Assembly: GCA_020725805.1 (NCBI GenBank)
Contig: DYEF01000072.1
Location: 148 to 64,147, forward strand
DNA from: Bdellovibrio sp.
GTDB lineage: Bacteria > Myxococcota > SpSt-1050
Reading direction: 5' to 3'
DNA: 64,000 nucleotides
Shown here in pieces: positions 8,241-42,956 of the stretch. Positions within the stretch are counted from its first letter, which is position 1; every line of letters starts with the position of its first letter. The notes below the pieces were generated by a model. It was not told the DNA's origin, did no database searches, and worked only from the letters and a program-made list of their open reading frames with translations. The position numbers and the translations under genes were made by a program.

Positions 8241-9770
8241 ATGAAGCGGTTTATCTGGATATCCGTATTTGTTCTGAATCTTTCTATATCTTATTCTCAG
8301 GGGTTACCGTCTTATATTCTTGATGGCTCTAATGTAATCTGGTTTGTGCAGATTACTGATACACACGTGGACTCTGATGCCCTGAAATATTACAAGGAAT
8401 ATCTACCATGGGTATTGAATGAAGCAGTGCCTCTTATAAATCCGTCGTTTGTTGTGGTAACCGGTGACCTGACTGATTCTACGAAACCGGCCATACCATA
8501 TTATGGCTCGGGTCCTCACGAATATGAGTGGCTGAAATATAAGGAAATTTATACGAATGCACTTATGACGCCGAGTTTCTACTATGACTGTCCGGGGAAT
8601 CACGATGCATACGGAGACGGACAACTTGCATACTATCTCAAATATTCTATGCAGGGTTCATTTACGAACAGCACACAGGCATCTTGGTACATCGATAACG
8701 GAAAGGGGATATACCACTTCTTCTATGCCGCAACAACGGCAAATGACGGGAAGCAGTGGCCCTCGGACAATCAGGAGCTTACTGATGATGAACTGATTCA
8801 GATCGACAGATTTCTAAAAGAAAATCCGAACGCCTCGATGAGAATCGCCTTTGCACACCACGACTATGAAAAAGAGGATGTAAAGAACAAGGAGAGATTT
8901 CTTGTACTCCTCAAACAGTACGGTATTCCGTTTTTCGGGCACGGCCACGAGCACGACATAGGATTCAGAAAGGGAGACGGGAATATAATCAAATTCAGAC
9001 TTGACTCTCTGGGACAGTCAGAGGGGAATAATGTGGCAATATGGGCAATCGATAATTACAATGTGACGATTAAGGTCTTTAAGGCTATGGCTGCCTTTCC
9101 GGCTGCAGTGATTACTGCACCGGCAGATGTGGTTTTGGACGACCCTAAGAACAAGGTTGAAAATCCGTATGTTCCGCCGGTATCAGTTTACTGCAAAAAC
9201 GCTCCGGTGCGGGCACTGGTATTTTCGAAGGCAAATAATCCTGATGTAACATTCAGAATCGATAACGGCAAAGAGACCGCTATGACAAAGAGAAAGAAGA
9301 ATCCTTATCAGTACAGAGGATATTTTGACGCAACTGCTCTTGGAACCGGTCTTCACACGATTACGGTTATTGTCAAGTCGGATATAACAAGGGAGACTAA
9401 AAACGAGTTTTATATCTCCGATATCCCCTGTGAATTAGGAGAAGAGGATAGTGATGAGATAATTACCGAAGATGCCGGTTATGAACTGCCCAAGGATTCT
9501 GCTCGGGATGATATCAGTATGTCAGATGATTTTGGATTAGATGATTATACTGAGGAGAATACAGATATTGTGGTCTATGAAGATATATTTGATGACGTTG
9601 CTGACGGTCAGGATGATACAGAAATATATGACATTGCAGATACTAATGTCATAAAAGACGCAGGTTCAAAAGACATCTATTCAGCCGATATAATTATAAA
9701 TAAACCAGACACCTCAGAAAAAGATTCTGACTCAGATTCCTCCGGCTGCAGCTGCAACTTTATTTACTGA
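8241..9770 (+). CDS. Exported calcineurin-like metallophosphoesterase with Asp-rich linker and GCSC C-terminus
   Basis: Signal peptide; DTH, TGDLTD, PGNHD, AHH, GHGHEH motifs; ends DSDSSGCSCNFIY. Confidence 0.85.
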   Translation: MKRFIWISVFVLNLSISYSQGLPSYILDGSNVIWFVQITDTHVDSDALKYYKEYLPWVLNEAVPLINPSFVVVTGDLTDSTKPAIPYYGSGPHEYEWLKYKEIYTNALMTPSFYYDCPGNHDAYGDGQLAYYLKYSMQGSFTNSTQASWYIDNGKGIYHFFYAATTANDGKQWPSDNQELTDDELIQIDRFLKENPNASMRIAFAHHDYEKEDVKNKERFLVLLKQYGIPFFGHGHEHDIGFRKGDGNIIKFRLDSLGQSEGNNVAIWAIDNYNVTIKVFKAMAAFPAAVITAPADVVLDDPKNKVENPYVPPVSVYCKNAPVRALVFSKANNPDVTFRIDNGKETAMTKRKKNPYQYRGYFDATALGTGLHTITVIVKSDITRETKNEFYISDIPCELGEEDSDEIITEDAGYELPKDSARDDISMSDDFGLDDYTEENTDIVVYEDIFDDVADGQDDTEIYDIADTNVIKDAGSKDIYSADIIINKPDTSEKDSDSDSSGCSCNFIY

Positions 9771-11426: not shown

Positions 11427-13382
11427 TCAGTATATTTCCTTTATGTCAACTTTTATTTTTGCTCTGATATAATCGTTTTCAATACTAAATGTATAATCCC
11501 GTAGCTCTACATAATTTTCGAATGAAATCAGTTCCTGATGTATATCAAATGACCACTCCTTTATACCAAACCTCGGATAATAATCTACCTCCAGGAGCTT
11601 GAGCTTCAAATATAGTTTATCCATCTCATTGAAAACGGGACCATCAAATAATGTTATACCTGTTGTCTTTGTCTCGTCCTGATTCATAGTAAAGAGATCT
11701 GAACTTCTGTGCTCGACCGTTGCTATATGAACAGGCGCATCAATTTTGTACTGGTTTTTGATATACGGATTATATCTGACCTCTACCTGAGCAGATATCT
11801 CTGCCGGAGGAGAGCCGTGCTCACCGTCGAGCGGTTTGTGATTCTCCCTGTCCTTTTTCAGATACACTTCATCAAGAGTAACTATTACCTTCCTATTATG
11901 AAAGAGTGCAGCCGTTGCAAGAATGCCTGCCCCATCGGTCTCAGGAAGTGTCATATGGTCAACATAATTATAGGAGTGTGAGGCGGTAATCTTTTCATCC
12001 TCCTTTGTAAAGAATGCACCCGAATCCTTCTGGTTATGGAAATATTCGTCGAGTGTATACATAATTCCGTCATTCGGTTCATCACCGGGATTGTTCAGGT
12101 CCAGAAGTGCAATATTTAATGCCTCCTTGATCTTCGGGTCCGTTGCCGCATAGTGATTGATGTATATCCCCGACAGAAGCGGTGAATTCCCTTCGTATAA
12201 TTTGTGGTCCCATACTGCTGCATAATCCATAACAAAATCAGGATGCATAACGACAAAATCGGACAATTCCAGACCAATCAGTTTTGCAGTATCCTGTACC
12301 TTGGGGTTGTCATACAATCTCGCAAGTCTCGCCCCGGCAATCACTCCCGCACTTGTAAACCATTTCACTATTCTGTTGTCTGTTGCAAGATTCTCAATGT
12401 CGTTCTCAATCATATATCTTGAGATGAGACACCCCATCGAGTGACAGGCAAGATTTACATTTGTTGCTCCGGTCTGATTTAGCTTATACTTGATGAATTT
12501 TGCAACAATTAAGGCATATCTGTGAAGAGCTGTTTCTTTGTCGTACGGGTATTTTTCAATCTCGTCGATATCGCTCTGGGTCAGGTAATCAGCGGGGACT
12601 GCACCATAGTATTCAACGCTCGTCAGCTGAACAGGTGATACTTTCCCTTCCTGAGTATCACTGCAGGGTCTGTTTATTCCGAAAAACTGTAATTTTTCTT
12701 CTATGCCGGAACATCCCCGGTCTTTACCGTATACCATTGTTTTAATGTCTTCAGGTTTTTTATTATAAAATCCGTGGACCCATACCGTTATTGTATTCTC
12801 TCCATCATATCTTTTTGAGTTCTTGAATTCATACGGCTTACGGCAGTCGGCAGGACACTTTTTATCATCCTCGCATATAGAGCAGTAGCCATCTGCGCAT
12901 TCACTCCATCTGTCAGGGTCGAGAGTCGGTGCCACGCACTGGTTCAGGACACAAAGCCCGCCGGGACAGGTCTCGGGCTTTTTCGGGTCGCAGCTGTAAT
13001 CGAACTGTGTAGTCTCTTTACAGGATATATCCGTTATCGCATCGTCTGAGAAAAAAATATCTCCCGCTCCTGTATCCCGTATCTCTTCTGATGTATCGGC
13101 AGATATATCCGGTAATTCCACAAAGTCTATTGATATATCTCTTATCTCGTAAACGTCGCTCTCATTACTGATATCTTCGTAATCTGAATCAGAGATTGTG
13201 TCCTCTGCTATGTCTGTAATATCCGTTGTATCCTTTATAATTATGTCCTGAATACTGCTGTCCGGAATAATACTTGTATCAAATACCGGAATGTCCGGGG
13301 TCTGCTCCTGCGTATTCTCGCTGCAGTTTATAGATAAAAAGATGAAAAAGAGAGAAGACAGAATTATCCTTAGATTTTTCAT
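11427..13382 (-). CDS. Lipoprotein with lipase/esterase-type alpha/beta hydrolase domain
   Basis: Lipobox-like SINC, long Asp-rich linker, Cys-rich segment; VWVHGF, CHSMG nucleophile elbow, NDGIM, DH. Confidence 0.75.
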   Translation of the reverse strand: MKNLRIILSSLFFIFLSINCSENTQEQTPDIPVFDTSIIPDSSIQDIIIKDTTDITDIAEDTISDSDYEDISNESDVYEIRDISIDFVELPDISADTSEEIRDTGAGDIFFSDDAITDISCKETTQFDYSCDPKKPETCPGGLCVLNQCVAPTLDPDRWSECADGYCSICEDDKKCPADCRKPYEFKNSKRYDGENTITVWVHGFYNKKPEDIKTMVYGKDRGCSGIEEKLQFFGINRPCSDTQEGKVSPVQLTSVEYYGAVPADYLTQSDIDEIEKYPYDKETALHRYALIVAKFIKYKLNQTGATNVNLACHSMGCLISRYMIENDIENLATDNRIVKWFTSAGVIAGARLARLYDNPKVQDTAKLIGLELSDFVVMHPDFVMDYAAVWDHKLYEGNSPLLSGIYINHYAATDPKIKEALNIALLDLNNPGDEPNDGIMYTLDEYFHNQKDSGAFFTKEDEKITASHSYNYVDHMTLPETDGAGILATAALFHNRKVIVTLDEVYLKKDRENHKPLDGEHGSPPAEISAQVEVRYNPYIKNQYKIDAPVHIATVEHRSSDLFTMNQDETKTTGITLFDGPVFNEMDKLYLKLKLLEVDYYPRFGIKEWSFDIHQELISFENYVELRDYTFSIENDYIRAKIKVDIKEIY

Positions 13383-14508: not shown

Positions 14509-14991
14509 TTATCTGATCTGATTGATAATATCTTTGCTGATATTTCCGGTATGAATGAAGAACCTCTTTTCTCTTTTGTTTATCAGAACCGATGTAGGGA
14601 TGGTCGTAATTTTCCCGAGCGGCCAGTCCCCGTTGATTATGTCGTTACCTGCAACCATTACCGGAAAATCAATCCCGTTGTATTCGACGAATGGTTTCAG
14701 TGTAGTCTCTTTGTTGTAGTCCATTCCGACTCCTAAAATGATGATTCTCTTTTCCGAAAGAAGATTCCTGTTCTCCAAAAAGAAGTTTATGTCGGATATG
14801 CAGGTCAAACAGTATGAACTGAAAAAATAGATTATGTATATCTCTGCGTCGAATTCCGATACTGTGGAGTATCCTCCGCCGAGCCTCTGGAACCTGTAGG
14901 AGAGGATATCTTCTTTCAGCGGTTTCCCCCCCTTGACCATAAAACAGGAGAGAGAGAGTATCAGAAATGCAGAAATAAGGAATCTGTTCAT
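14509..14991 (-). CDS. TlpA-like thioredoxin-fold (redoxin) lipoprotein
   Basis: ATG 14991 overlaps the amidase stop (ATGA); lipobox SLSC; FFSSYCLTC, IPTSVLI. Confidence 0.75.
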   Translation of the reverse strand: MNRFLISAFLILSLSCFMVKGGKPLKEDILSYRFQRLGGGYSTVSEFDAEIYIIYFFSSYCLTCISDINFFLENRNLLSEKRIIILGVGMDYNKETTLKPFVEYNGIDFPVMVAGNDIINGDWPLGKITTIPTSVLINKREKRFFIHTGNISKDIINQIR

Positions 14992-17900
14992 CTCAGAACC
15001 GAGCACCCGCATCCTGATGAGTCTGATTCCACGACAACTCCGCTGTCCTCTGGCTGTCCTGCAACGCATATCCCCTTTATGCAGACAGTCCCTGTGCCGC
15101 AGACCGAACCGATATACCATTCATTTCTCACACAGACCCTTACATTATTTCCGTCACAGACACGTTCGCCGTTCTCGCATATCTTCGTGCCGGTATCCTT
15201 TGTCTTTGCATCTTCGCCTGCATCGGCAACTCCGGTATCCTGAATAATATCTTCTGCAATTACATCATCGCTCTTTGCATCGCCCTCTTGTGTATCATCG
15301 GTCCCTGCATCAGCATCAGGATTTATAACACATTTGCCGTCTTTGCATATTTTATCTGCATCGCAGCTCTTTGTCTCGGAGAAAGTACCAGATATGGAGC
15401 ACTGTTTGTATCTTTTACTGTCGAGGCATACGCTCTCTGACGGGTTACAGCAGGTGTATTCGATTTCACGGTCGGATTTTGGAATATCCCCTGCAAGAAA
15501 GCCCGCAATCCTTTTCATTACTTCATTTCTGGTGTTTTCAAGGTAGATGGATTCGAACGGGAAACCGAAGTAAATGATTTTGTATTCTTTTGTATATAGA
15601 ACTGCCGCTGTTCCCTTGTTCTGGTCGTAGAGCAGTTCGGATTTGGAGTTGTTGGCAGTATTTATGACATCAGCATATTTTACGGGATATGTACCTTTCG
15701 TCCCGTCGTCGAAGAGGATTTCATTTATACCGGTAAATATGCTCTCCTGAACCGGTACTACCTTATATACCCCTGATGAATCCGCGGAAAATGACGCCCT
15801 CAGCCAGTCATTGAAGAACTTCTTGTCCTCTGTATCTCCCCGGTAGTCAAGGTCCCACGCTATCTCAGAGCCGCTTACAAAGAGTGAGCCTCCTTTTGAG
15901 AGGAATTCGGTTATCTTTGTCTGCTCGGGGCGGCTGAATGTCTCGTCCTTTGTGGATTCGAGTCCGCATATCCAGTCTATCATTGCATAATGGTTTGTAT
16001 CTACATCCTTTACGAAGGCCTCGTTTGTGGCACTCTCGAAGAAGTATCCGTTGTTATATAATGCCTTTGCATGAGGAATAATCCAGTTCCCCCTGTTCAT
16101 CTCGATCTGTACCGAGGCATCGAGTCTGTCGAAGGCGTTTACAATAAGTATCGGCTTCCACCCCCTGATATCCTGAATCGTGACGGCGAGAATCTGGGAA
16201 TCGAGTGATTCACCTCCGTCATTTATGGCAGTTACTTTTACGAAAACGAGACCCGGAGAGAGACAGCTCTTTTCAAACGAATTTGTGGATACGGAGGTCC
16301 CGTTGTCGAATCCGTAACCATCCTTTGACAGGTAGACCCTGTATCCGGTTGCCCCGTCGACGGATTCCCAGCTGACCCTGAGAACCCCGACAACAGGTGA
16401 TTCCGCATATATACTCTGAGGCGGCTCCGGAAGAAACGGCTTTGTACCGTTTACGAACTTTGCAATGGCCCTGTAGACGGCTCTTCCCATAAGTTTCTTG
16501 AATTTTGTATCGTGCAAGTATTCGTTGTCCTTAACGTTCGTAATGCCGTCGTGAAATGCGAGTTCGGTCAGGGCAGAGGGCATCGTCGTGCACTCCCTGA
16601 GTTCTCCGAAATTTGCAGATTTTACACCCCTGTCGGTCCAGTTAGGGTCATATTCCTTTCTTATATCAGTCATAATCTGTGTCTGGATGAGAGAGGCGAG
16701 CTCATTGGAACCGGGATAAATCTGGCCGTTGTAATAATATGTCTCGGTCCCCGTTGAGGTATTGTTGAAGGCATTTGTATGAACCGAGACATAGAGGTCT
16801 CCCTTTGCCCAGTCCGCATATTTTGGTCTGGAAACCACATCGTCGTTGTTGTCAGTGGTCAGTGCATCATATACGGAGGAGGGTGCACCTGCAAATTGTG
16901 CAAAATACCTTGCCGCCTCCTGCCACCGTGGTTTTCCGCTCGTATTACCTCCCCTTGCAATACTTCCCATTCCTCCGCCGAGCCTTATGGCATCTGCAAT
17001 TATGTAATTGCCGTCTTTGGCAGAGAGGTTACTGATTTTCATAACAGCCTTTTCGGTAAAGTAAAACGAAGGGAGATAGAACCAGGTCGGTGTGCCTGTC
17101 TTCTGGTTGATGATAAATGTCGTTTCTCCGCCGGAGTGATATACTGCCAGAGGAGTATCTTCCGCACGGTTACTACCCGGGACCCACCATAGCGAGACCC
17201 GAAAAAAACTATCCGAAGGGAGATTGATTGTGTATTCAGCTATCGAGGAAGCAGATTGTGTGCTTGTCTCGGCGACCCTGTAATTGTCGGTATACCCGCC
17301 GGGGGAGTTACCGTCTGTGAAATTACCCGTCTCCTTGTAACCCTGAGGTGATGAATTGTCCATAATGTATTCTTCGGTGCTGAAATCCCTCTCTCTTACC
17401 GAAATGACGTGTGCACCGGCCCTCTCGAGATACGGGATAAGCCAGTTGTTGCATATATCTGCCGTGAGCAGGTCCTCTATCAGTCCGTTGATATTATCCC
17501 TTTGTGTAATCCAGCCCAGATTATCGTTGTAATAGTAGCCGTGTCCCGGAGAGATTACAATCCGTTTGCCGGACAATGTCCCGTTTGGTGCGTCCTTTGA
17601 GTTGAGTTTTATAATATTGCATCCGTCTGAATCCTTGATTTTGACCTTTCTTTCTGTCCTGACTGCCTCGTCGATGGTTATAATCCTGCCTTCGTAGTAA
17701 AATCTCAGGTCGTATTTTTCTATCCCTTTCAGATGGTCCGAGAGTGTATGTATTATCTGTTTCTGCATCTCATCATACTGAACTACTTCGGAGAAATGCG
17801 GGAGTTTATTGGTCTTTAGAACCACTGTTATTGTGTTGCCTTCCGTCTTTATGCTGTAAACGGTGGCATCATCCGGCAGATATGTCTTTACTTCCTTTAC

Positions 17901-18095
17901 CTCTTTTGCAGAAGTGAGCAGAAGATTCAGGATTTTTTCTGCCCTCTTACTGATATCCTGCGGGAGATCTATCTCCTTTCTGATAGTATATGTACTGTTG
18001 CCTTTGTAGTACATAAGACTTATCTCTTCGGAGAATAAAAGTCCGGGAAGCAGGATTACTGAAGTCAATAGAAATATTCTGTACATACTCTTCAT
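14988..18095 (-). CDS. Multidomain N-acetylmuramoyl-L-alanine amidase (Amidase_3 with inserted golvesin/CBM-like domain, FN3, GCGC C-terminus)
   Basis: Signal peptide; SPGHG, IEDL, VSVHTNA, LTELAFHD; ADAIRLGGG insert; FN3-like VSW..GYRVY..VTAINDGGES; ends ESDSSGCGCSVLR. Confidence 0.85.
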   Translation of the reverse strand: MKSMYRIFLLTSVILLPGLLFSEEISLMYYKGNSTYTIRKEIDLPQDISKRAEKILNLLLTSAKEVKEVKTYLPDDATVYSIKTEGNTITVVLKTNKLPHFSEVVQYDEMQKQIIHTLSDHLKGIEKYDLRFYYEGRIITIDEAVRTERKVKIKDSDGCNIIKLNSKDAPNGTLSGKRIVISPGHGYYYNDNLGWITQRDNINGLIEDLLTADICNNWLIPYLERAGAHVISVRERDFSTEEYIMDNSSPQGYKETGNFTDGNSPGGYTDNYRVAETSTQSASSIAEYTINLPSDSFFRVSLWWVPGSNRAEDTPLAVYHSGGETTFIINQKTGTPTWFYLPSFYFTEKAVMKISNLSAKDGNYIIADAIRLGGGMGSIARGGNTSGKPRWQEAARYFAQFAGAPSSVYDALTTDNNDDVVSRPKYADWAKGDLYVSVHTNAFNNTSTGTETYYYNGQIYPGSNELASLIQTQIMTDIRKEYDPNWTDRGVKSANFGELRECTTMPSALTELAFHDGITNVKDNEYLHDTKFKKLMGRAVYRAIAKFVNGTKPFLPEPPQSIYAESPVVGVLRVSWESVDGATGYRVYLSKDGYGFDNGTSVSTNSFEKSCLSPGLVFVKVTAINDGGESLDSQILAVTIQDIRGWKPILIVNAFDRLDASVQIEMNRGNWIIPHAKALYNNGYFFESATNEAFVKDVDTNHYAMIDWICGLESTKDETFSRPEQTKITEFLSKGGSLFVSGSEIAWDLDYRGDTEDKKFFNDWLRASFSADSSGVYKVVPVQESIFTGINEILFDDGTKGTYPVKYADVINTANNSKSELLYDQNKGTAAVLYTKEYKIIYFGFPFESIYLENTRNEVMKRIAGFLAGDIPKSDREIEYTCCNPSESVCLDSKRYKQCSISGTFSETKSCDADKICKDGKCVINPDADAGTDDTQEGDAKSDDVIAEDIIQDTGVADAGEDAKTKDTGTKICENGERVCDGNNVRVCVRNEWYIGSVCGTGTVCIKGICVAGQPEDSGVVVESDSSGCGCSVLR

Positions 18096-40559: not shown

Positions 40560-42956
40560 ATGTATAAAAGCAGTTTAATTAAATCAGTTGTTTTTATCCT
40601 TGTTGTCCTTGCAGGCATGCTGGTTTATGCCGAATCGAGTCCGCCGGAGGATGCATCTCCCGGGATTTTGCTCAAGGACGTAAATCTAAAGAAGGACGGA
40701 GCCGCTCTCAGAATACTTATCAATACTGGCGCTGTTGTCCCCTATTATGTGACAATGGTGAATAATCCGCCCAGACTGGTGGTGGACCTCGAGAGGGTAA
40801 GAACGGAGAGAGGTCTCAAGGAGAAGAAGTTTTCGAGAATGCCTGTCGAAAAGATGAGAGTCGGTAAACATCAGGCATTTACGAGGCTCGTGTTCGACCT
40901 TGCAAAGGATACCGGTTATACCGATTTCTCAACCGCAATTGACAGCGGAAATATTGTAATCTCCGTTTATCCAAAAGCAGAACAGGAAATAAAAATAGAG
41001 CCGGTTACCAATGTGCTTGCTGCAAAACAGGAAAAGAAGGATATCGTTCAGGCAGATACAAAGTCTGTTCCTGAGGTCAAAAACGCCGAGGCAAAACCTT
41101 CTGTTAAGGAAGAACCGGTAGTTCAGCCGGAAAAGCCTCTAACACCCAAGACCACGGTAAAGAACGAGGAGAAGAAGAAAGAAGAGAAGGCTCCTGTGGC
41201 TGAGGAGAAATCGGCCAGTGAACAGGATAAGAAGATACAGCTTTCCGATATCAGCATCAAGCAGTTTAACGGCTATTCGAGGCTTATGATATCTTTTGAC
41301 AGCGAAAATATCGAGCATTCCATCATCAAGGAGACAGACAGGGAGATTCAGATAAAATTCAGTAAATGCAGGGTATCGGATGATGTCCCGTCAGTAATCA
41401 ATAAAGTTGAAAAATCAGGGCCTGTATCGGTTATTCAGCTCTCGAAGGATAAGAAGGCAGACGGCTCCTGTCTGGTATCGGTATATATGAAGGAGAAGGT
41501 ACCGCATCACCTTGTAAGGGAGAATAAGAATATCAACTGGGATTTCTATTATTCTGATAAGCCTCAGCAGATAAAATTTTCAGAGGAGATGGTTGCAGGC
41601 GACGAGAAAGGCGAGGCTCAGGAAAAATCTGATGACTCCTCCGATACAAAGAAGGTCTACAAAGGCAAGAGAATCAGTATGGATTTCAAGGATGCGAACA
41701 TACACAATATTCTGAGACTGATATCGGATGTTGCTAAGATAAATATTATTACAAGCGATGATGTCAAGGGTAATGTGACCGTTACTCTCAGGAATGTCCC
41801 GTGGGACCAGGCTCTTGAAATAATTCTCAAGACAAAGGGTCTCGGGATGAAGAAGACAGGCAATATTATCAGGGTAGCGCCTCTCGAGGTATTCCAGAAA
41901 GAGGCAGAGGCGGAGATGGCAAAGAAGAAGGCGCTCGATGCACTTGAACCCCTGAAGGTAAGACTGATTCCGGTCAATTACGGATATGCAAAAGACATAG
42001 TATCACAGGTAAAAGATGTGCTTTCTGACAGAGGAACGATCAATATCGACGACAGAACGAATGTGATTATTATTAAGGATAAAATTGAAAATATCATCAA
42101 GGCCGAAGGACTCATCAGAAGTCTGGATACACAGACTCCGCAGGTGCTCATCGAGGCCAGAATTGTGGAGGCAAATACCTCATTTATCAGAGATATCGGT
42201 ATTCAGTGGGGAGGCAATATGGTCTTTGCTCCCCAGTATGGTAATCCCACCGGACTTGCATTCCCGAATGTGGTTGGAATCAACGGTGGTGCTGATGATG
42301 CAAGGACGATGAACCAGCTGAGCGGTGTTCAGAATCCCGCAGGGTTTGCGGTAAATATGCCGGCGCCGGTCGGTGCAGGGGCAGGTGGTGCCATCGGATT
42401 CATACTCGGGAATGCGAGCGGTTCGGCAAACCTTAACCTGAGACTTTCGGCGCTCGAGAATACAGGTCATGTCAAGATACTTAGCGCTCCGCGTGTTACA
42501 ACGCTGGACAACAAAGAGGCCAAGATTTCATCCGGTGTGTCGATCCCGATATCACAGGTCTCTGCGGCAGGTGTTATGACGGTCTTTATAGATGCAAAAC
42601 TTGAACTTGCAGTGACTCCTCACGTTACTCAGGACGGGTCGATTATGCTCAAGATTGTCACGACAAAGAACGAGCCCGATTTCTCGCGAACCGGTGCACA
42701 GGGCGACCCGACAATTCTGAAGAAAGAGGCTTTCACTCAGGTTCTGGTCAAGGACGGAGATACAACTGTAATAGGCGGTATCTATACGAGGAGACAGGCT
42801 GAAGAGTATGCAAAGGTTCCTCTCTTATCGAATATTCCTGTTCTGGGCTGGTTGTTCAAGAAGAAGAAGAGTTCTGACGAGAGAACAGAGCTTCTGATAT
42901 TCATTACGCCGCGTATAGTCAACAGAGCAGAAGCCATTATGCAGCAGAAGGGTTAA
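40560..42956 (+). CDS. pilQ: Type IV pilus secretin PilQ with AMIN domains
   Basis: NPPRLVVDL AMIN, ISMDFKDA, VPWDQAL, QVLIEARIVE, IPVLGWLFK, ELLIFITPRI. Confidence 0.95.
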   Translation: MYKSSLIKSVVFILVVLAGMLVYAESSPPEDASPGILLKDVNLKKDGAALRILINTGAVVPYYVTMVNNPPRLVVDLERVRTERGLKEKKFSRMPVEKMRVGKHQAFTRLVFDLAKDTGYTDFSTAIDSGNIVISVYPKAEQEIKIEPVTNVLAAKQEKKDIVQADTKSVPEVKNAEAKPSVKEEPVVQPEKPLTPKTTVKNEEKKKEEKAPVAEEKSASEQDKKIQLSDISIKQFNGYSRLMISFDSENIEHSIIKETDREIQIKFSKCRVSDDVPSVINKVEKSGPVSVIQLSKDKKADGSCLVSVYMKEKVPHHLVRENKNINWDFYYSDKPQQIKFSEEMVAGDEKGEAQEKSDDSSDTKKVYKGKRISMDFKDANIHNILRLISDVAKINIITSDDVKGNVTVTLRNVPWDQALEIILKTKGLGMKKTGNIIRVAPLEVFQKEAEAEMAKKKALDALEPLKVRLIPVNYGYAKDIVSQVKDVLSDRGTINIDDRTNVIIIKDKIENIIKAEGLIRSLDTQTPQVLIEARIVEANTSFIRDIGIQWGGNMVFAPQYGNPTGLAFPNVVGINGGADDARTMNQLSGVQNPAGFAVNMPAPVGAGAGGAIGFILGNASGSANLNLRLSALENTGHVKILSAPRVTTLDNKEAKISSGVSIPISQVSAAGVMTVFIDAKLELAVTPHVTQDGSIMLKIVTTKNEPDFSRTGAQGDPTILKKEAFTQVLVKDGDTTVIGGIYTRRQAEEYAKVPLLSNIPVLGWLFKKKKSSDERTELLIFITPRIVNRAEAIMQQKG

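Follow-up and report, generated by a model that had tools for sequence, protein, structure and literature searches.

A short cysteine-containing C-terminal tail on exported proteins of a myxococcotal lineage, probably a helix-less form of the MYXO-CTERM sorting signal

The closest described relative of the element treated here is MYXO-CTERM (model TIGR03901; proteases MrtX, MrtC and MrtP), a C-terminal signal of Myxococcota and Bradymonadales which is carried by dozens of unrelated Sec-exported hydrolases and adhesins per genome. Signals of this class, as described in 10.1101/2023.06.07.544157, are all tripartite, being built of a motif, a helix and a basic cluster, and the MYXO-CTERM motif is often GCGC; the same source assigns the handling of long (MYXO-CTERM) and short (CAAX) signals to one protease superfamily. 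MYXO-CTERM is cleaved by MrtX, the cysteines being required; this cleavage and the anchoring at the cell surface have been shown only for TraA of Myxococcus xanthus, and lipidation preceding the cleavage is the authors' proposal (PMC11980579); Lgt has been proposed as the lipid transferase (PMC11980579). The CaaX box of eukaryotes and archaea is much shorter, with one cysteine at position -4 that is prenylated in the cytosol by soluble transferases. Here, a 64,000-nucleotide stretch of DNA (positions 148 to 64,147 of contig DYEF01000072.1, assembly GCA_020725805.1; "the window" in the following) is considered, in which two genes for exported enzymes end in a G-C-x-C signature, exactly four further residues and a stop codon. 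This short tail recurs on some 50 proteins of the genome, and its relatives at the sequence level argue that it is a derived, helix-less form of MYXO-CTERM and not an unrelated signal.

The window lies on contig C68 of the assembly G000 (3.29 Mb, 115 contigs, 43% G+C, 97.9% complete), with a coordinate offset of 147. The features concerned are the following.

8241..9770, + strand: cargo 1, an exported metallophosphoesterase of 509 amino acids plus stop codon (open frame, Pfam Metallophos)
8241..8300, + strand: signal-peptide-like N-terminus of cargo 1, MKRFIWISVFVLNLSISYSQ, which passes a rule-based test
9432..9743, + strand: acidic, Asp-rich linker of cargo 1, about residues 398-501, approximately 100 amino acids (from the sequence)
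9744..9755, + strand: signature G-C-S-C of cargo 1 (G502, C503, S504, C505; from the translation)
9756..9770, + strand: four-residue extension N-F-I-Y and TGA stop codon of cargo 1 (from the translation)
14988..18095, - strand: cargo 2, an exported N-acetylmuramoyl-L-alanine amidase of 1035 amino acids plus stop codon (C68:15138-18242; Pfam Amidase_3 and Golvesin_C)
14988..15014, - strand: tail of cargo 2, G-C-G-C-S-V-L-R and TGA stop codon (from the translation)

The initial annotation had pointed out that these two enzymes end in a common GCxC core followed by exactly four residues, and both translations agree: window positions 9729-9770 (+ strand) translate to DSDSSGCSCNFIY and a TGA stop, closing the metallophosphoesterase frame, and the end of the amidase at 14988-15050 (- strand) reads EDSGVVVESDSSGCGCSVLR and then a stop. 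The calcineurin-type phosphoesterase domain (Pfam Metallophos) occupies residues 34-238 of cargo 1 (E 3.5e-12). In eight orthologues of this protein (65-84% identity) the G-C-S-C columns are invariant while the linker varies. A scan of the metallophosphoesterase and of its last 100 residues against NCBIfam matched no sorting-signal model.

The tail is not confined to the two genes, and its frequency is well above what chance would give. Among 2419 stop-to-stop frames of at least 200 amino acids in G000, GC.C was found 95 times, and 44 of these occurrences sit exactly four residues before the end; the others lie at three (2), five (1) or two (1) residues from the end or more than 12 residues away (47). 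Put differently, 47 frames end in GC.C plus three to five residues, and in 44 of them the number is exactly four. When S or A is allowed in place of the glycine six frames are added, giving 53, and in 50 of these the CxC is followed by exactly four residues; at least one frame of this set (contig C75, 660 amino acids, no acidic linker) is probably a chance match. The motif is thus genome-wide, as the initial annotation had suspected, with about 53 proteins instead of two. Alignment of the 50 tails gives the logo S/D/E-S-[G44 S4 A2]-C50-[S33 G13]-C50-[S32 N6 A4 T4]-[L25 F7 I5 V5]-[L23 I19 V5]-last residue, the last residue being E (22), F (8), D (6), Y (5), N (5), K (2) or R (2), with no Arg-rich cluster; the consensus of the four-residue extension is [S/N/A/T]-[L/F/I/V]-[L/I/V]-[E/F/D/Y/N]. 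The acidic linkers which had been claimed to precede the motif are general as well: the 60 amino acids before it contain 17.2% Asp in the 53 cargo proteins (2.9 times background) and have a median net charge of -12. At the DNA level the tail was searched as G-C-[S/G/A]-C-x-h-h-x-stop, with the reversed pattern as control, and G000 yielded 34 matches and the control none.

The ends are real. Following the 47 GC.C tails the stop codon is TGA in 22 cases, TAA in 15 and TAG in 10; all three being in use, no single reassigned codon can hide a continuation. When the 150 nt past each of the 53 genes were read in all three frames, with stops read through, a helix with a basic stretch was found downstream of only three. 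The tail is taken as real and under selection. Its length can shift by one residue within the genus, as is seen in an orthologous pair of 292-294 amino acids, of which the G000 member (C66:84929-85804) ends in GCSC plus four residues and the member from the related genome G001 (L022) in GCSC plus five.

The proteins which carry the tail (the cargo) have the properties expected from the proposal of an enrichment on signal-peptide proteins: a signal-peptide-like N-terminus was recognized in 47 of 53, compared to 534 of 1523 other long frames (Fisher p 2e-15). The test is rule-based and crude and passes 35% of the background frames, so that it shows enrichment and is not proof for any single protein; a looser first rule had passed 985 of 1575 background frames, and the stricter one was used in its place. 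In the six cargo proteins that fail the rule such a segment is present behind a non-ATG start. Pfam families could be assigned to 42 of the 53 and are spread over many unrelated families, including proteases (papain-type (3), matrixin (3), M36, M4, S8, S15 and M64 peptidases), glycan-active enzymes (GH25, GH15 and GH123 glycosidases, a polysaccharide lyase, a phosphodiester glycosidase), other enzymes (amidase, peptidyl-arginine deiminase, three phosphoesterases) and adhesin-like proteins with VWA (3) or FG-GAP/disintegrin domains, besides several beta-propeller proteins. The cargo reported for MYXO-CTERM consists of surface adhesins and hydrolases (PMC11980579), and the set found here is of the same kind.

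Two further modules were seen in the cargo. Divergent InlB B-repeat domains (Flg_new_2) stand between the catalytic domain and the acidic linker in 8 otherwise unrelated proteins of the 53 (e.g., L035, L041, L046, L080, L083), and a Cys-rich module, C-x-C-D-x-T-Y-x-C-D-P-D-C-E-C-D-P-x-C, directly precedes the sorting tail in several different cargo proteins from three lineages (G000 contigs C24, 558 amino acids, C40, 899 amino acids, and C84, 765 amino acids; G004 L027; G401 L111).

The acidic linker has a counterpart at the other end of proteins. It had been claimed that the N-terminal lipoproteins of this organism mirror it, and indeed 17 of 102 lipobox-like N-termini in G000 have an Asp-rich linker after the lipobox cysteine, which fits an anchor-proximal stalk at either protein end. 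One of these genes, whose product has a long Asp/Thr/Ser-rich acidic linker after the lipobox cysteine, lies in the window (11427-13382, - strand); 16 lie elsewhere. The pathway of N-terminal lipoproteins (lipobox, Lgt, LspA) is similar to the system considered here in that an anchor cysteine stands beside small and hydrophobic residues and the same Asp-rich tether is used in this organism; it differs in which end of the protein carries the signal, and the C-terminal tail has neither a lipobox consensus nor a signal-peptide helix next to its cysteine, while its use of Lgt is putative.

For the distribution of the tail, the genus is represented by four genomes (G000 and G001-G003, the last of which is 85% complete) and the sister family of the same order by G004, a GC-rich, 6.3-Mb genome and the sole other sampled genome of the order. 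The four-residue pattern has 34, 21, 22 and 31 matches in G000 to G003, with none in the controls, and no more than 8 in any of 397 further genomes sampled from the phylum; in the genome with 8, the matches are mostly at TGG and not at stops. A five-residue pattern was used for G004, which has 34 matches (control 0), all other sampled genomes having at most 4. Short tails are accordingly present in five of five genomes of the order, with four residues in the genus and five in the sister family, and the pattern searches found none in the 396 remaining genomes sampled from the phylum. With unspecific five-residue and CxC patterns the controls gave just as many matches; only the matched sequences were informative there, and more specific patterns were used instead.

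A third lineage came from a contig search with the phosphoesterase homologue P0018, which found no close relative (best 44% identity) and led to the genome G401. There, the pattern C-G-C-x-h-h-x-stop, used for this group, has 23 matches (control 2), and the two genomes closest to G401, G402 and G403, have 12 and 28; among its 38 further relatives the count is 0-5. Short tails are thus systematic in eight genomes (the four of the genus, G004 and G401-G403), they are interior to contigs, and they recur in independent assemblies and metagenome proteins. Hits to the canonical signal form a gradient, from 50 in G405 (which has no match to the short pattern) to 16, 6 and 9 in G401, G402 and G403, 2 in G004 and none in the genus. 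This distribution points to replacement of the canonical form; that both forms coexist in G401-G403 argues that one pathway handles both, and G401 has a single myxosortase-core match above the cut-off.

The link to MYXO-CTERM, already drawn by the initial annotation, can be sharpened by orthologues, by a tree and by comparison within genomes. Among 44 homologues of the phosphoesterase, 18 have short cysteine tails. Of these, 8 (73-100% identity, the nearest homologues being 73-87% identical) end in GCSC plus four residues and 5, at 46-50% identity, in GCSC plus five; three end in GC.C plus three or four residues (GCACRVR, GCGCRTVS and GCSCKVSR), and two have a single cysteine and no helix. A full GCGC-helix-RRR signal is found on about 17 of the 44, and the most distant nine are without such an end. 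The nearest orthologues come from metagenome-assembled genomes labeled as Deltaproteobacteria, Myxococcota or Bradymonadales bacterium, which points to Myxococcota, as does the frequency of MYXO-CTERM (50 of 57) and of a myxosortase core above its cut-off (51 of 61, the genus included) among genomes of the same phylum. A quick IQ-TREE run on the first 400 residues of all 44 homologues groups the 14 short-tailed sequences closest to the phosphoesterase in a single clade (SH-aLRT 99), which is nested among sequences with canonical tails; another pair with short tails stands apart (support 100), and the tree requires at least four changes between short and canonical ends. The two single-cysteine ends, from P0026 and P0035, read GGCSVGSFRRR-stop, where the basic cluster is retained without the helix, and GGCGLIIL-stop; these ends may represent alternative shortenings of the signal, or broken genes.

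Within single genomes the two forms resemble each other. The canonical signal of G004 reads GCGC-ASVGA-GDDAG-helix-RRRR, and its short tails are GCGC-ATVGL, GCSC-AAVGI and GCGC-AQVGT; in G401, canonical signals open with GCGC-SLAG, GCGC-TLAG or GCGC-RVAG, and short tails are GCGC-SLVS and GCGC-SLIR. The end of the L086 protein, VCGC-VLAG, resembles the opening of the canonical signals of G401. Since the canonical openings match the short tails genome by genome, the short tail, which makes up the last eight or nine residues of the protein, is the beginning of the canonical signal, its signature and the residues next to it, cut short at a register that depends on the lineage; spacer, transmembrane helix and arginine cluster are gone. 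Orthologues that keep the full helix had been named beforehand as a possible refutation, through truncation or assembly error; they do exist in other lineages, but the error is not supported, and because the short form is systematic in eight genomes they reflect evolution.

The canonical form itself is missing from the genus. TIGR03901 (cut-off 20 bits) has no match in G000 at E values up to 10 and none in G001-G003, and a direct scan of G000 for Cys-helix-basic ends found no such family; 50 of 57 other relatives are matched by the model. The seven relatives without a match (G005, G011, G015, G047, G053, G058 and G059) show no excess of the two short-tail patterns either; G005, G015 and G059 pass the myxosortase-core cut-off, the other four being below it, and the seven may hold other unmodelled signal variants.

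Compared to MYXO-CTERM, the short tail shares the phylum, the G-C-[G/S]-C signature after a low-complexity linker and the occurrence on dozens of unrelated exported proteins, with orthologues carrying either form, and a myxosortase-core protease and a type II secretion system are present. It differs in lacking the transmembrane helix and arginine cluster and ending four or five residues past the second cysteine, in that both cysteines are obligatory and at a fixed distance from the free C-terminus, in the lack of any TIGR03901 match in the genus, and in its compact enzyme of 218 amino acids, which scores below every named subtype cut-off. Other C-terminal sorting signals are likewise short tags on many diverse exported proteins served by one membrane protease, some with an invariant cysteine and a CPBP enzyme; these keep the helix and the basic cluster, and none is described in 10.1101/2023.06.07.544157 as working without them. 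A full-text literature search retrieved no paper describing a helix-less form; table S1 of that source (MYXO-CTERM proteins), which the search did not cover, might list short forms.

A myxosortase/CPBP protease, which the initial annotation had suggested looking for, is present. G000 has exactly one match to PF02517, a CPBP protein of 218 amino acids encoded outside the window (G000:C2:42719-43027). It scores 119.3 and 117.9 bits on the myxosortase-core model Mrt_core (NF040914; cut-off 100), which none of 14 control genomes passes. When nine myxosortase-core proteins were aligned, the motif columns E127, E128, R132, F163, H167, H203 and N207 were invariant, and the motifs EExxxR, FxxxH and HxxxN are intact in the G000 protein. 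Its predicted structure (mean pLDDT 91.7) has seven long helices; the best Foldseek matches are Rce1 (4CAD; TM-score 0.55, E 9e-3) and SpdC (6U0O; TM-score 0.67), neither of which reaches E 0.001, and a profile search of the PDB sequences with this protein gave no match. Two other genomes of the genus encode a myxosortase as well (117 and 110.7 bits), making three of four. A complex prediction for the myxosortase and the last 40 residues of the phosphoesterase scored 0.00 (mark 0.32), which speaks neither for nor against binding.

The gene next to mrt encodes a DUF3108 protein (PF11306) in G000, G001, G002 and G004, i.e., in all four myxosortase-bearing genomes of the order. It was considered as a partner of the short tail and dropped: DUF3108 is present in 44 of 61 relatives and, by coordinates, is also beside mrt in five genomes of family f6 with canonical signals (G008, G017, G026, G040, G046), that is, in 9 of 61 altogether; it may be a partner of myxosortases in general. 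The locus in G000 spans C2:41219-44527 (L002; likewise L013, L031 and L032), with an ispD-ispF fusion on the other side of mrt in this genome.

Of further components, the type II secretion system is represented in G000 by the secretin GspD (588 bits, cut-off 351; contig C16). A distinct secretin-family frame of 799 amino acids lies in the window at about 41682-42935 (+ strand; G000:C68:41829-43082) and scores 184 bits on the GspD model, below the cut-off. A row of ileS, lspA, a divergent Lgt gene (320-amino acid frame, 156 bits) and a standard Lgt gene (270 amino acids, 219 bits) is found at G000:C105:9835-14919. The second Lgt was dropped as a dedicated transferase, as 1-6 Lgt matches occur in 31 of 31 genomes of the phylum and no cargo gene adjoins it; Lgt paralogues are candidates for the lipid transferase acting on the C-terminal cysteine. 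An ICMT-like methyltransferase was dropped too, the match being weak (31 bits) and in a 129-amino acid frame at a contig end; moreover, an enzyme dependent on S-adenosylmethionine faces the cytoplasm.

The reading favored here, with a probability of roughly 0.55, is that a variant of the MYXO-CTERM/myxosortase pathway is at work, whose signal has shrunk to the length of a CaaX box and has, in place of the helix, a fixed distance to the free C-terminus. The cargo would be exported by Sec via its N-terminal signal peptides; a cysteine would then receive a modification, most likely a lipid, on the periplasmic side of the inner membrane, and the single retained myxosortase-family CPBP protease would cut off the short stretch beyond the cysteines, much as Rce1 removes aaX from prenylated proteins. 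The long acidic linker would be the stalk, and the type II secretion system would carry the anchored protein to the cell surface, as in Myxococcus. The distance to the free C-terminus would position the cysteine for recognition in the helix's place; the exactness of the length (four in 50 of 53 tails, five in G004) points to reading from the free carboxyl end, and as the cargo carry export signals, any modification should be extracytoplasmic. The sequences show a real and selected signal that derives from MYXO-CTERM, and the presence of the enzyme; modification of the cysteine, removal of the last residues and anchoring at the surface are inferred.

Several observations weigh against this reading. 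The CPBP protein reaches the cut-off of none of the named myxosortase subtypes (MrtP 160 of 250, MrtC 135.7 of 195, MrtX 83.3 of 180, MrtZ 66.6 of 325 bits), and G003, at 85% completeness, has no myxosortase match. The Mrt_core cut-off is passed in 51 of 61 genomes, the genus included; the protease is not specific to genomes with short tails, and its presence is therefore weak evidence of a coupling. No modifying enzyme specific to the order was found, the Lgt paralogues being phylum-wide (31 of 31 genomes), and there is no known way for a helix-less substrate to be held at the membrane or fed to an intramembrane protease.

The idea of a CaaX-style tail stands as far as length and logic are concerned. 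Alike are the very short terminal signal with a cysteine at a fixed distance and aliphatic residues after it, the protease family (CPBP/Rce1; PDB 4CAD is MmRce1) and what in both cases suggests a modify-then-clip logic. The position of the cysteine is where the idea fails: the short tail has two cysteines, at -5 and -7 in the genus or -6 and -8 in G004, on proteins exported to the periplasm, and with no cysteine at -4 the comparison has to be limited accordingly. The resemblance is a convergent shortening of a bacterial signal and not descent from CaaX. It is conceivable, and offered tentatively, that the system amounts to an extracytoplasmic bacterial counterpart of the CaaX pathway, the first such, in which the cysteine of an exported protein, set at a constant distance from the free C-terminus and with no membrane helix, would be recognized by a transferase and a CPBP protease; about eight residues would then hold all sorting information, and G401-G403 would represent a transition in progress, with one enzyme for both forms.

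Alternatively, the tail might be a self-sufficient anchor which does not involve the myxosortase: the cysteine would be lipidated, e.g., by an Lgt paralogue, the end would be kept or trimmed by another peptidase, and the myxosortase would have another job. With no helix by which the tail could be brought into an intramembrane active site, a myxosortase that is phylum-wide and not specific, 31 tails in G003 next to no myxosortase match, and two Lgt genes adjoining lspA, this has some appeal. It is nevertheless unlikely, since the terminal extension has a fixed length of four or five residues of conserved types, as expected if they are read and removed, and since the myxosortase is the only CPBP gene in G000, keeps all catalytic residues and has no canonical substrate left; G003, furthermore, is merely 85% complete.

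The tail could also be a leftover, loss of the helix having turned anchored proteins into free substrates of the type II secretion system, with a GCxC end that has no sorting role. TraA of M. xanthus without its MYXO-CTERM is released into the medium by this system (PMC11980579), and the cargo are mostly hydrolases able to act in free form. A leftover would decay, though, and yet of 50 tails, all of one exact length, 44 have the glycine and all have both cysteines, the motif is invariant among orthologues while the adjacent linker varies freely, and the same register is found on about 50 unrelated genes and in eight genomes; this explanation is thus rather improbable.

Also very improbable is an action of the CxC by thiol chemistry instead of a lipid, that is, a disulfide to an envelope partner, metal binding or a thioether to a polymer, the tail remaining uncleaved. 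In the genus both cysteines are always together, while canonical signals often have a single one (P0017, P0020, P0021, P0029-31), and the periplasm is oxidising. No partner gene was found, however; in the signal to which the tail is homologous, both cleavage by MrtX and surface anchoring require the cysteines (PMC11980579), and canonical signals commonly have this GCGC pair as well (10.1101/2023.06.07.544157). An artefact, in which assembly truncation, stop read-through or an unusual genetic code hides a normal helix, was raised because orthologues elsewhere have full tails, found no supporting evidence and is scarcely credible given the use of all three stop codons, the near-lack of helices downstream (3 of 53 genes) and the recurrence of the tails, inside contigs, in independent assemblies and metagenome proteins.

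Search methods for such signals, the curated model included, depend on the motif, the helix and the basic cluster together; for this reason genomes with short tails seem to have a sorting enzyme without substrates, and in each of them the annotation of about 50 surface proteins lacks the anchor. The short form is a natural deletion experiment on what the lipid transferase and the myxosortase recognize, and its existence suggests that recognition needs no more than the signature with four or five further residues. If the system is indeed an extracytoplasmic counterpart of the CaaX pathway, the helix and arginine cluster of MYXO-CTERM, and perhaps of other cysteine-type tripartite signals, would be dispensable tethers. 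The short tail also connects the long signals of bacteria with the short CaaX box of eukaryotes, on which the same protease family acts, and would offer a very small tag for surface display.

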